This document shows positions 18,292 to 33,875 of a stretch of 64,000 nt of DNA, piece by piece. Source of the DNA: Escherichia coli. Lineage in GTDB: Bacteria; Pseudomonadota; Gammaproteobacteria; Enterobacterales; Enterobacteriaceae. Position 1 is the stretch's first letter. Each line of letters begins with the position of its first letter. Position numbers and translations under genes: made by a program. A model generated the notes under the pieces. That model was not told the origin of the DNA. It was given only the letters and a program-made list of their open reading frames with translations, and ran no database searches. The stretch is taken from assembly GCF_022846255.1 (NCBI RefSeq), contig NZ_AP025682.1, one strand, 5' to 3'.

Positions 18292-19125
18292 TTAATTGCT
18301 CAAACGCTGCGGATGGGTATAAACCGTTGCCCGACCCGGTTTACAAAAGCCCACCAGCGTCAGATTACAGCGCTCAGCCACTTCTACAGCAAGTGTGGTC
18401 GCGGCAGACACCGCAAACAAAATCTCTACGCCGCACATCGCCGACTTTTGCACCATTTCATAACTGGCACGGCTGGAAACCAGCACCGCACCTTGCTGCC
18501 AGCTTTCCCCTTCTTGTGACCGGCGGCCTAACAGTTTGTCCAGCGCCACATGGCGACCCACGTCTTCATGCCCGCCGACCAGTTCGCCAGATGGCAACAT
18601 CCATGCAGCGGCGTGAGTACAACCAGTCAGTTGCCCCACTGGCTGGAAATCATTGAGATGACGTAATGCATCATCCAGTTTGTTGAGATCAAACATCTGG
18701 GTGAACGGCAGCGGCTGCACCGGTTTACCGATATCGTTAAGCTGTTCTACACCGCATACGCCACAGCCCGTACGTCCCGCCAGCGCCCGGCGGCGCTCCT
18801 TCAACCCCATAAAGCGGCGGCTGGAAAGCTCAATTTGTACTTCCAGGCCATTACAGGAAGGAACGACATCCATGCCGAAGATATCGCGCGGGCTTTCGAT
18901 AATTCCTTCGGAAAGCGAAAAACCGAGCGCAAAGTACTCAAGGTCTTTGGGCGACGCCATCATCACCACATGCGAAATACCGTTGTAGACCAGCGCAACG
19001 GGAACTTCTTCCGCCACCTCATCTAACCGTGGGTGTTGTAAATCATCACGCCGCCATAACTCAATTTGACGAACACCTGTGATATTTGTCACATTTTCGA
19101 TTTCTTTTTGCTGTGTTTTTTTCAC
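18292..19125 (-). CDS. fdhD: Formate dehydrogenase sulfurtransferase/accessory protein FdhD
   Basis: [59 protein letters not shown]...; 277 aa; divergent from fdoG. Confidence 0.9.
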
Positions 19126-25415: not shown

Positions 25416-25671
25416 TCAATTGTTACTCAAAAATGGTTTATTACTTTTAATTAAGCGGGGGCACATCTACAGGAAAGAAACAACAAATAATAAGGATGAA
25501 TTATGGATGCTATAAATATTTTATATTCAAGAATATTTTTTGATTGGGTCTTCATTTGCTTCATCAGGATGGTGTACCCGAAAAAGTCAGCAGCTTTACC
25601 GCACCAGGGTTTAAGGTGAAATCTACCATTCATAACGACCGGTCAGTGCCGCACCAACCGGTCTTTAATTG

Positions 25672-31095: not shown

Positions 31096-31881
31096 CTACG
31101 CGTCTTCCTGGGGAAGGATGATTTCAATTTGGCTGTCTTGTAAGCGTGATTTTAGCGCAGCGGGCGGCAGCTCGTCGGTAAAGAGCGCAGTGACCTGTGC
31201 CACGTTACCAATTTCAACCGCCGCCGAAGCATGATACTTAGTGTGATCGGCGACCAGCAGGATATTTCTCGCGTGCGCCATCATCGTTTTCACCACGTTA
31301 GCTTCGTTAACATCAAACTCCATCAACGCGCCATCGCTCTCGATTGCGCCTACGCTTGTTACCAGATAATCTGCGCGAAAATCGGCCACAAAGGACGCCG
31401 CTGAAGGGCCAATGATCCCACTGTTATGGGAACGCAGCGTTCCGCCAGGCACCATCACTTCAAAGCGCGGGTTGTGGTAAAGAATATGCGCCACACGCAG
31501 GCTGTTGGTGATTATCCGCAAATGGTTATGGTTAAGTAACGCCCGGGCAACATGCTCAACGGTCGTACCAATGGTGATAAATATTGTTGAACCATCAGGA
31601 ATATAATCTGCCACCGCTTCGGCAATCGCTTTTTTTTCTTCGGTTTGCGAAACCTCACGCTGCTCGAACGCCGTATTAACGACGCTGGAAGCCCGACCCG
31701 CGCCACCGTGATGGCGCGTAATCAGTCCTTGCTCGCTTAATTTACGAATATCCCGGCGCACCGTCTGCGTGGAGACATCCAGCAGATTTGCCAGCTCATC
31801 AATATTCATATACCCACGCTCGGCGATCAGCATGAGGAGTTGGTCGTGCCGCGGGTTACCGGTTAGTTCGGTAAGGCTCAT
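31096..31881 (-). CDS. yihW: DeoR-family repressor of sulfoquinovose catabolism (CsqR/YihW)
   Basis: MSLTELTGNPRHDQLLMLIAERGYMNIDELANLLDVSTQTVRRDIRKL...; HTH plus sugar-binding domain; 261 aa from the internal Met. Confidence 0.9.
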   Translation of the reverse strand: MSLTELTGNPRHDQLLMLIAERGYMNIDELANLLDVSTQTVRRDIRKLSEQGLITRHHGGAGRASSVVNTAFEQREVSQTEEKKAIAEAVADYIPDGSTIFITIGTTVEHVARALLNHNHLRIITNSLRVAHILYHNPRFEVMVPGGTLRSHNSGIIGPSAASFVADFRADYLVTSVGAIESDGALMEFDVNEANVVKTMMAHARNILLVADHTKYHASAAVEIGNVAQVTALFTDELPPAALKSRLQDSQIEIILPQEDA

Positions 31882-31914
31882 GAAAATTCCTCGAAAAACC
31901 ATCACCCTGGCATT

Positions 31915-32811
31915 TTATACAAAAAGTGACAAAAAAGATCGGGTTTGATCACAGTCAGGGATCCCAGCTCGTCCACCGGGACGTGTGCATTTTAACGCCG
32001 CTACACCGCTGGCGAAGCGGACTGACTCCGCTAAATCCCCACCTGTGGCCAGCGCCACCGCCAAAGCGCCGTGAAAAACATCACCCGCTCCTGTGGTATC
32101 TACCACATCAACTTTGAAGGCCGGTTGATGTTGACGCCCGCCATTTTCCAGCCAGTCGCAGCCTGCGCTGCCCTGGGTCACATAGACATGACCATTTGTG
32201 AGCGTTTGTGCCTGTTTTAGGGCACTCGCCATCTCTTTCACGCCCGTTAAGCGCGCCAGACCCGGTTCTGAAAAAGCTGCATGATCGCTTAACGCCACCA
32301 GTTCGCTGATATCCTGCGGCGTAATATCACCGTCCAGCACGGTCATTACGCCCGCCTGCCGCGCCAGAGTGAAGGCTTTTTTCGCGCCGTCGTGCCAGCG
32401 TACATCTGCCAGCACCACGTCCCACTGAGAGAAATCAATTTCCTCCAACCACTCTGCATCAGGCAGTAGGTCTGGGCTGGGATAGTTAATGATGATGCGC
32501 TCACCTTTGGCATCCACCATGATGGCGGATTGCGAAGATTTCGCCTGGTTATACCGTTTGGTGTAACGGGTGTTAACACCCCAGGATTCCAGCTCTGCCA
32601 GCAGGCTGTTGCCCGTGTCGTCGTCACCGACGCGACCAATAAAATCGACCTGCGCACCTAGTCTGGCCGCCGCAACTGCTGCTGTAGCCGCTGGCCCGCC
32701 GCCAACTTCCGTATAATTTTTCGCCACGTATTTACCGCTCTCCGTCGGCAATCCTTCCACGTAATAGATGCGATCCATCACGGTAATTCCTACACAAGCA
32801 ACACGAATCAT
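31915..32811 (-). CDS. yihV: 6-deoxy-6-sulfofructose kinase (PfkB family)
   Basis: MIRVACVGITVMDRIYYVEGLPTESGKYVAKNYTEVGGGPAATAAVAAARLGA...; C-terminal DTTGAGD motif; 298 aa. Confidence 0.9.
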   Translation of the reverse strand: MIRVACVGITVMDRIYYVEGLPTESGKYVAKNYTEVGGGPAATAAVAAARLGAQVDFIGRVGDDDTGNSLLAELESWGVNTRYTKRYNQAKSSQSAIMVDAKGERIIINYPSPDLLPDAEWLEEIDFSQWDVVLADVRWHDGAKKAFTLARQAGVMTVLDGDITPQDISELVALSDHAAFSEPGLARLTGVKEMASALKQAQTLTNGHVYVTQGSAGCDWLENGGRQHQPAFKVDVVDTTGAGDVFHGALAVALATGGDLAESVRFASGVAALKCTRPGGRAGIPDCDQTRSFLSLFV

Positions 32812-32817
32812 GGTCAT

Positions 32818-32978
32818 TCCTTAAGCATTTTGGGATGCGTTCATTTTAATTTCATCAATTGTTTAAAAAGTGACGGCTGTCAATTTTTTGACGATAAATT
32901 ACAAATACGATCAAAAACAGACAAGCAAGGCATGTCATAAATGACAAAAAGTGACATCACTGTATTCAGGAGAGAGTT
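32818..32978. promoter_or_regulatory. Divergent yihV / yihUTS… control region with repeated AAAAAGTGAC motifs (candidate CsqR operators)
   Basis: aaaaagtgac at 32864-32873 and 32945-32954, plus a third copy at 31921-31930 upstream of yihW; also near-palindrome tgtcataaatgaca. Confidence 0.4.
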
Positions 32979-33875
32979 ATGGCAGCAATCGCGTTTATCG
33001 GTTTAGGGCAAATGGGTTCGCCAATGGCGAGCAATTTATTGCAGCAAGGGCATCAACTTTGCGTCTTCGATGTGAATACCGAAGCCGTACAGCATCTGGT
33101 CGACAAAGGGGCGACTCCCGCTGCTAACCCAGCGCAGGCCGCTAAAGGTGCCGAATTTATCATTACCATGTTGCCGAATGGCGATCTGGTGCGTCACGTG
33201 TTGTTCGGTGAAAACGGTGTCTGTGAGAGCTTATCTTCCGATGCGCTGGTCATTGATATGTCGACCATCCACCCGCTGCAAACCGATAAATTGATTGCTG
33301 ATATGCAGGCCAGAGGCTTCAGCATGATGGATGTTCCGGTAGGCCGTACTTCCGCAAATGCCATTACCGGTACTCTGCTACTGCTGGCTGGCGGCACTGC
33401 TGAACAAGTTGAACGCGCCACGCCGATCCTGATGGCGATGGGCAGCGAGTTGATCAACGCGGGCGGTCCGGGCATGGGGATCCGCGTTAAGCTTATCAAC
33501 AACTACATGAGCATCGCGCTCAATGCGTTGTCGGCAGAAGCCGCCGTTTTGTGCGAAGCCCTCAATCTTCCCTTCGATGTTGCCGTCAAGGTAATGAGCG
33601 GTACTGCCGCCGGTAAAGGCCACTTCACCACTTCCTGGCCGAACAAAGTCCTCAGCGGAGATCTTTCTCCCGCCTTCATGATCGATCTTGCCCATAAGGA
33701 TCTTGGCATCGCCCTTGATGTCGCCAACCAGTTGCATGTGCCGATGCCACTGGGGGCCGCCTCACGGGAGGTTTATAGCCAGGCGCGCGCAGCGGGTCGC
33801 GGTCGCCAGGACTGGTCCGCCATTCTGGAGCAGGTCCGTGTCAGTGCCGGGATGACTGCCAAAGTAAAAATGTAA
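32979..33875 (+). CDS. yihU: 3-sulfolactaldehyde reductase (beta-hydroxyacid dehydrogenase family)
   Basis: [33 protein letters not shown]... (Rossmann GxGxxG); 298 aa. Confidence 0.9.

Follow-up and report, generated by a model that had tools for sequence, protein, structure and literature searches.

The sulfo-EMP (yih) locus of Escherichia coli carries a short A-rich repeat around its divergent promoters, which raises the question of whether this repeat is part of the operators of the DeoR-family repressor encoded there. The window analyzed here, a 64,000-nucleotide stretch of E. coli DNA, contains csqR (yihW; 31096-31881, - strand), the gene of this repressor, followed by yihV (31915-32811, - strand), which encodes sulfofructose kinase, and yihU (32979-33875, + strand), which encodes sulfolactaldehyde reductase and is the first gene of the divergent operon. 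The three genes were assigned from their open reading frames and from the RefSeq annotation of the identical sequence. In addition, the CsqR protein showed Pfam matches to HTH_DeoR (PF08220, 2.6e-23) and DeoRC (PF00455, 1.7e-49); among solved structures, the closest relative is 7L6L, the C-terminal domain of DeoR. Over this region, the sequence shows 100% identity to annotated E. coli chromosomes, and it is colinear with K-12; compared with K-12, the 167-bp yihV/yihU spacer has five SNPs, which leave the motif untouched. The last ~12 codons of yihV appear to double as the promoter and operator of csqR. Shimada et al. (2019, Microbiology 165:78) have reportedly described the regulation of yihUTS, yihV, and csqR by CsqR (YihW) in E. 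coli K-12.

The 10-mer AAAAAGTGAC was found in exactly three copies in the whole window, all on the + strand, at 31921-31930 (copy 1), 32865-32874 (copy 2), and 32946-32955 (copy 3). Dinucleotide shuffles gave an expectation of 0.15 copies, and none of 100 shuffles reached three. The threefold occurrence reported in the first-pass annotation was therefore confirmed as far above chance. Its coordinates were correct for copy 1 but 1 nt too low for copies 2 and 3. These two copies do lie between yihV and yihU, as had been described; copy 1 does lie upstream of yihW, but within the yihV reading frame (..TTG TCA CTT TTT GTA TAA) rather than between genes. A further 150 kb of E. coli K-12 DNA contained the 10-mer twice, inside fabA and inside glpB. 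A similar frequency throughout the genome, which the first-pass annotation had named as grounds for refutation, was not borne out in this sample: the background is ~1 per 100 kb, compared with three copies in 1.04 kb at the yih locus. In all, 214 kb of E. coli DNA (the window together with three K-12 segments of 50 kb) were sampled, along with ~0.4 Mb from orthologous loci. The 13-mer ACAAAAAGTGACA is common to copies 1 and 3, and a fourth copy with one mismatch, AAAAATTGAC, is present at 32879-32888 on the - strand as the inverted partner of copy 2.

These copies belong to a family of elements in which an A-tract is followed by N-(T/A)-GAC(A). The family is represented at least seven times, in four operator-like units (O1-O4). 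On sequence grounds, AAAAAGTGAC is the best-matching form of this wider family of putative half-sites. The recognition unit probably consists of (G/T)ACA repeats at 10-bp multiples, with the 10-mer representing a spacer plus one half-site; the bases that CsqR contacts are inferred. The degenerate form AAAAN[TA]GACA had four matches in the window, all within these two control regions, compared with four in 150 kb of other K-12 DNA, and in an unbiased k-mer test A-tracts, TGAC, and GACA ranked highest. The paired form KACA-N6-GACA was found twice in the window against 2.9 expected; its count does not exceed chance and its location alone is telling, and its frequency was rejected as a stand-alone statistic.

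O1 (TACAAAAAGTGACA; 31918-31931, + strand) holds copy 1 and contains two (G/T)ACA half-sites 10 bp apart. It is placed in the spacer of the csqR promoter, just upstream of the -10 element and within the final codons of yihV. O2 is an inverted repeat, AAAAAGTGAC-GGCT-GTCAATTTTT, centered at 32876.5 over the yihV -35 region. Its left arm is copy 2 (32865-32874, + strand), an exact and conserved match, and its right arm is the one-mismatch copy AAAAAATTGACA (32878-32889, - strand). An extra GAC element, TTTTTTGAC (32884-32892, + strand; profile G94 A100 C98), lies 10 bp before the TACA of O3. O3 (ATAAATTACAAATACGATCAAAAACAGACA; 32894-32923, + strand) is nearly invariant and has a TACA at 32900 and a GACA at 32920. 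O4 (ATAAATGACAAAAAGTGACA; 32937-32956, + strand) holds copy 3 and has GACA at 32943 and 32953, 10 bp apart; the stretch around copy 3, GACAAAAAGTGACA (32943-32956), thus has two (G/T)ACA cores at the same distance as in O1. A repeat finder paired ATAAATTACAAA (32894-32905) with ATAAATGACAAA (32937-32948) and CAAAAACAGACA (32912-32923) with CAAAAAGTGACA (32945-32956), indicating that the 30-bp O3 is a paralogue of the 20-bp O4 with 10 extra bp between the cores. The O2 inverted repeat escaped a repeat search with a seed of 6, which also returned nothing in the junction. The near-palindrome TGTCAT AA ATGACA (TGTCATAAATGACA) that had been pointed out in the first-pass annotation is present at 32933-32946 on the + strand, with its right arm alone conserved. 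Outside Escherichia, its left arm varies (positions 38-70% conserved), and for this reason it was discarded as a conserved operator; the conserved near-palindrome of relevance is the one at 32865-32889 instead.

The positions of these units were compared with the published transcription starts, which lie at -27/-28 from the ATG for yihW, at -25/-27 for the major start of yihV (several yihV starts being reported), and at -15, -25, -35, -62/63, and -82/92 for the five starts of yihU (Kaznadzey et al. 2018, PMC5816610). O1 lies at ~-13 to -23 of the csqR start, O2 over the yihV -35 region, and O3 and O4 over the yihU starts, with O4 overlying the proximal ones. A consensus promoter scan, at its threshold, gave no sigma-70 -35/-10 pair in 31800-33050, and the -10 and -35 assignments therefore rest on the published starts and on inspection. 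The putative csqR -10 element, TATAAA (31914-31919, - strand; alternatively TAAAAT at 31912-31917), fits the published start, and TGTATAAAAT at this position is invariant across orthologues. Likewise, the putative yihV -10 element, TAAAAT (32843-32848, - strand), fits the published major start and is invariant in orthologues, and the yihV promoter has no recognizable -35 element. The csqR promoter also contains a CRP-like region, TGTGATCAAAC (31938-31962, - strand), with an invariant TGTGA at 31949-31953; copy 1 lies outside it, and the core scan gave it three to four mismatches. A conserved CRP site has been described at -41.5 of the yihW start (PMC5816610). GATC (Dam) sites are present at 32909-32912 in O3 and at 31937-31940 and 31946-31949 in the csqR promoter as invariant parts of these regions; CGATC is kept in nearly all orthologues, and methylation-sensitive binding is possible.

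The array was then set against published data on CsqR binding. According to three reports (PMC8006165, PMC8249747, PMC12608037), gSELEX placed CsqR essentially at the yihU/V spacer alone and, as a second location, in the DNA upstream of csqR; EMSA, which was done on both fragments, and AFM revealed cooperative, oligomeric, high-order complexes along the spacer; binding was weaker at the yihV/W fragment; and whole-fragment complexes dissociated with sulfoquinovose, SQ-glycerol, or sulforhamnose. The binding of CsqR to both regions and its release by sulfoquinovose had thus been shown in prior work by others. In addition, YihW ChIP-exo yielded one strong peak (S/N 168) at NC_000913.2 4071641-4071681 and no peak at the csqR promoter in the published table (Gao et al. 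2021, PMC8464067). The strong peak corresponds to positions 32892-32932 of the window, namely, to O3, between the exact copies 2 and 3. For this conversion, an offset of 1977 was applied from version.2 to version.3, and the window position was then obtained as 4106550 minus the K-12.3 position; we take 1977 to be the total length difference between NC_000913.2 and.3. The offset agrees with the U00096.2 promoter coordinate in PMC5816610.

The ChIP-exo interval contains the degenerate family members ATAAATTACA and AAAAACAGACA and none of the three exact 10-mers. The peak nevertheless supports the family, in that O3 and O4 consist of the same kind of half-sites. The proposal that the repeats are CsqR/YihW operators of both divergent operons was accordingly supported at the level of region and motif family, whereas the comparison with published sites spoke in part against the literal 10-mer, since the peak falls outside its exact copies. 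The presence of a single unit at O1 fits both the weaker binding to the yihV/W fragment and the lack of a ChIP-exo peak there. On inspection, the minor YihW ChIP-exo peaks at yafO, ssuE, and glpA contained no convincing copy of the motif. The glpA peak (S/N 13.7) lies on the GlpR-operator-like AAAAAACGAAC just upstream of glpA in the K-12 glpT-glpA spacer (L065, ~25620-25640); this sequence resembles the CsqR half-site pattern, and cross-binding between DeoR-family paralogues is possible. Full-text literature searches, whose scope did not extend to Shimada et al. 2019, found no base-level CsqR consensus or footprint.

Conservation was assessed in sixty orthologous yihV loci (6.9 kb each) taken from one-genome-per-species collections; these loci are related, so their counts are not independent. 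The exact 10-mer occurred solely at three homologous positions, two of them relative to the yihV ATG (~-63 and ~-144) and one located 12 nt ahead of the stop codon of yihV, and this positional pattern was found in Citrobacter, Salmonella, Klebsiella, Enterobacter, Leclercia, Pectobacterium, Rahnella, and others. Copy 2 was exact at -62 to -64 from the yihV ATG in most genera (profile A96-100, then G98 T100 G100 A100 C89), and the 13-mer ACAAAAAGTGACA was exact at the O1 position in 36 fetched loci. Among 56 distinct spacers, 32843-32923 was almost invariant. Within this block, the arms of O2 were conserved while its three central bases (GGC) varied freely, the pattern characteristic of a protein site with two arms.

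Across many genera (~55 orthologous loci), both the GAC(A) cores and the distances of 10/20/23 bp between them were retained while the spacer sequence drifted. Downstream of O3, GACA followed at 23 bp (occasionally 22) and then at 10 bp in essentially all genera, and the 23-bp sequence itself was free. In Enterobacter, the A-tract of O4 was replaced (TTGACACGATGTGACA), but the GACA-10-GACA geometry stayed, indicating that the cores are more important than the A5 run, which accounts for half of the 10-mer. The recognition helix of CsqR, VSTQT(V/I)RRDIRKLS, was invariant in all orthologues. In one Enterobacter metagenome-assembled genome (L046), copies 1 and 2 both read AAAAATTGAC, O2 is the perfect palindrome AATTGAC-CGAT-GTCAATT, and CsqR uniquely has a V to I change in its recognition helix; this is a single case and a hint of co-variation.

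The end of yihV showed a corresponding constraint. In codons 287-298, the third-position entropy dropped to 0.39, whereas the mean over the gene was 1.32; no other window of yihV had a lower value. TGTCAC was retained in genera in which the penultimate codon changes its amino acid (F to Y or S). The csqR gene was adjacent in all loci but one; in this sole locus without csqR downstream (L014), copy 1 with O1 and the neighboring TGTGA are gone, and both the constraint and the C-terminal residues of YihV are changed. Conservation alone cannot identify the protein, because the 80-bp block also encodes two divergent promoters and possibly CRP or IHF sites.

About 1400 of 5426 complete E. coli genomes are without the K-12-type spacer. 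A short cassette, as represented by E. coli NCTC9966 (L063, 3463-3634 and 2527-2600), has the order yihN-DeoR regulator-kinase / yihU-aldolase-Zn-ADH-MFS, and its regulator is 72% identical to CsqR with the same recognition helix. In this cassette, ATAAAGTGACA is kept at the junction, and the spacer contains TGTCA direct repeats and the palindrome GTCAATTTAAATGAC. The spacer keeps the central block alone (78% identity), and its yihU-proximal TGTCA repeats are oppositely oriented. The shared helix and the motifs kept in the short cassette fit the published finding that each of the two regulators, that of K-12 and that of the short cassette, also binds the DNA of the other.

Other explanations of the repeat were considered. 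The GTGA-containing copies might serve cAMP-CRP in activating the promoters of yihV and csqR and not be repressor operators. O2 reads AAA AGTGA CGGCTG TCAAT TTT, which matches seven of ten CRP core positions with a center at ~-40.5 from the published yihV start; the yihV promoter lacks a recognizable -35 element, and CRP binding to these fragments has been published (PMC5816610). However, a CRP core with three mismatches is ordinary, with 151 such sites in the window. Neither copy 1 nor copy 3 has an acceptable second CRP half-site (at least four mismatches), and the two lie at repressing positions, at ~-13 to -23 of the csqR start and over the yihU starts, respectively; the published CRP site of csqR is at least 10 bp away from copy 1. 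The bases that are conserved also point elsewhere: the first G, which is critical for CRP, varies (GTGAC, TTGAC, ATGAC, CAGAC), whereas the C after GA, which is irrelevant for CRP, is ~100% conserved and the A-tract is kept as well, and the O2 palindrome of L046 contains neither GTGA nor TCAC. CRP as the explanation of all three copies was rejected because the conserved bases are not CRP-critical and copies 1 and 3 are one-sided, and the CRP account as a whole is unlikely. CRP as a second occupant that overlaps CsqR at O2 is plausible. Elsewhere in the window, a perfect CRP core, TGTGATATTTGTCACA, is present at 19078-19093; a one-mismatch match of the 10-mer at 19088-19097 belongs to it and is unrelated to the yih sites.

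The repeats could also reflect promoter architecture without dedicated repressor contact, that is, -35-like TTGACA/GTGACA hexamers, A-tracts acting as UP-like or bending elements, and possibly IHF. xTGACA matches five of six positions of the sigma-70 -35 consensus, A-tracts are typical upstream elements, and many starts (five of yihU and several of yihV) have been mapped in the spacer. The IHF core consensus is WATCAANNNNTTR with a 5' A/T-rich tract; TGTCAATTTTTTG (32877-32889), a putative site with an A-tract upstream, matches 12 of its 13 positions and overlaps the right arm of O2 alone. Against this explanation, the scan gave no -35/-10 pair in 31800-33050, a promoter based on the O4 hexamers, which are 24-36 nt away from the yihU ATG, would initiate in the ribosome-binding site or the open reading frame, and on the csqR strand the sequence of copy 1 is TGTCAC, which does not resemble a -35 element and has the wrong orientation for csqR. 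Moreover, the fixed 10/23-bp phasing of GACA cores in the same orientation is no promoter property, and the genome-wide restriction of CsqR to these two loci would be left unexplained; we consider promoter architecture as the sole cause rather improbable. Chance alone, by which an A-rich 10-mer would recur because regulatory DNA is AT-rich and copy 1 would be conserved simply as coding sequence, has a negligible probability. The spacer is indeed AT-rich, two copies occur in 150 kb of K-12 DNA, and copy 1 encodes the YihV C-terminus, but no shuffle reached three copies, the copies are positionally conserved across genera, the synonymous positions of yihV are frozen, and TGTCAC stays when the penultimate codon changes its residue. 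Pure chance is effectively refuted by these observations.

The explanation that we favor, and consider probable, is that the 10-mer is part of an operator array of the sulfoquinovose-responsive DeoR-family repressor CsqR (YihW). The motif family, its enrichment and conservation, the fixed spacing, and the overlap with promoter elements were observed directly in this analysis. The recognized unit would be a (G/T)ACA or TGAC(A) half-site after an A-tract, arranged as direct repeats at 10, 20, and 23 bp in O1, O3, and O4 and inverted once, in O2. Approximately seven such half-sites over ~95 bp of the yihV/yihU spacer (32865-32956) could be covered by cooperative CsqR oligomers, which would occupy the yihV -35 region through O2, the distal yihU starts through O3, and the proximal yihU starts through O4, and occupancy of the array would shut both divergent promoters. 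O1, a lone unit of two half-sites between the CRP-like site and the csqR -10 element, would confer weaker autorepression. The binding of sulfoquinovose, SQ-glycerol, or sulforhamnose to the DeoRC domain would release CsqR.

A more specific version of this model, for which we see even chances, holds that the CsqR operator is a set of phased (G/T)ACA half-sites, at 10-bp multiples and with A-tract spacers over ~95 bp, on which one cooperative filament or wrapped complex would silence two divergent promoters. In this version, the autoregulatory unit and the csqR promoter would be embedded in the last 12 yihV codons and constrain the C-terminus of the protein, and O2 would be a site of competition between CsqR and CRP.

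It is already established that CsqR controls the sulfo-EMP genes, and the repeat refines known biology and reveals nothing new; the view of sulfoquinovose catabolism is unchanged. The value of the analysis lies in a concrete operator model, consisting of O1-O4, GAC(A) cores, and fixed phasing. Such a model would explain the strong cooperative binding to the yihU/V spacer and the weak binding at csqR as well as the cross-binding between the K-12 and short-cassette regulators, and it could guide the design of sulfoquinovose reporters or biosensors. Furthermore, the 3' end of yihV (31915-31953) clearly exemplifies how synonymous sites can be constrained by regulatory signals.

In comparison with the known CsqR system of K-12 (PMC5816610, PMC8464067), the locus, the two target regions, the repressor, and the inducers are the same. 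Published binding is described at the level of fragments and peaks, whereas the half-site family, its phasing, and the units O1-O4 are what we infer here. The arrangement at O2 is similar to that of class II CRP promoters with an overlapping repressor (anti-activation), in that O2 lies at ~-40.5 of the yihV start on a weak CRP-like site; it differs from them in that the CRP-like match of O2 is statistically ordinary. The GlpR and DeoR operators of E. coli consist of multiple tandem or distant operators that are bound cooperatively by tetramers or octamers. The predicted CsqR array resembles these in belonging to the same regulator family, in having several ~10-bp half-sites spread over one or more promoters, in responding to a sugar or sugar-phosphate-type inducer on DeoRC, and in having sites that may overlap CRP sites in a divergent region. 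Unlike the GlpR and DeoR operators, it has another half-site sequence, mixes direct (10/20/23 bp) and inverted arrangements, and contains strong A-tracts.
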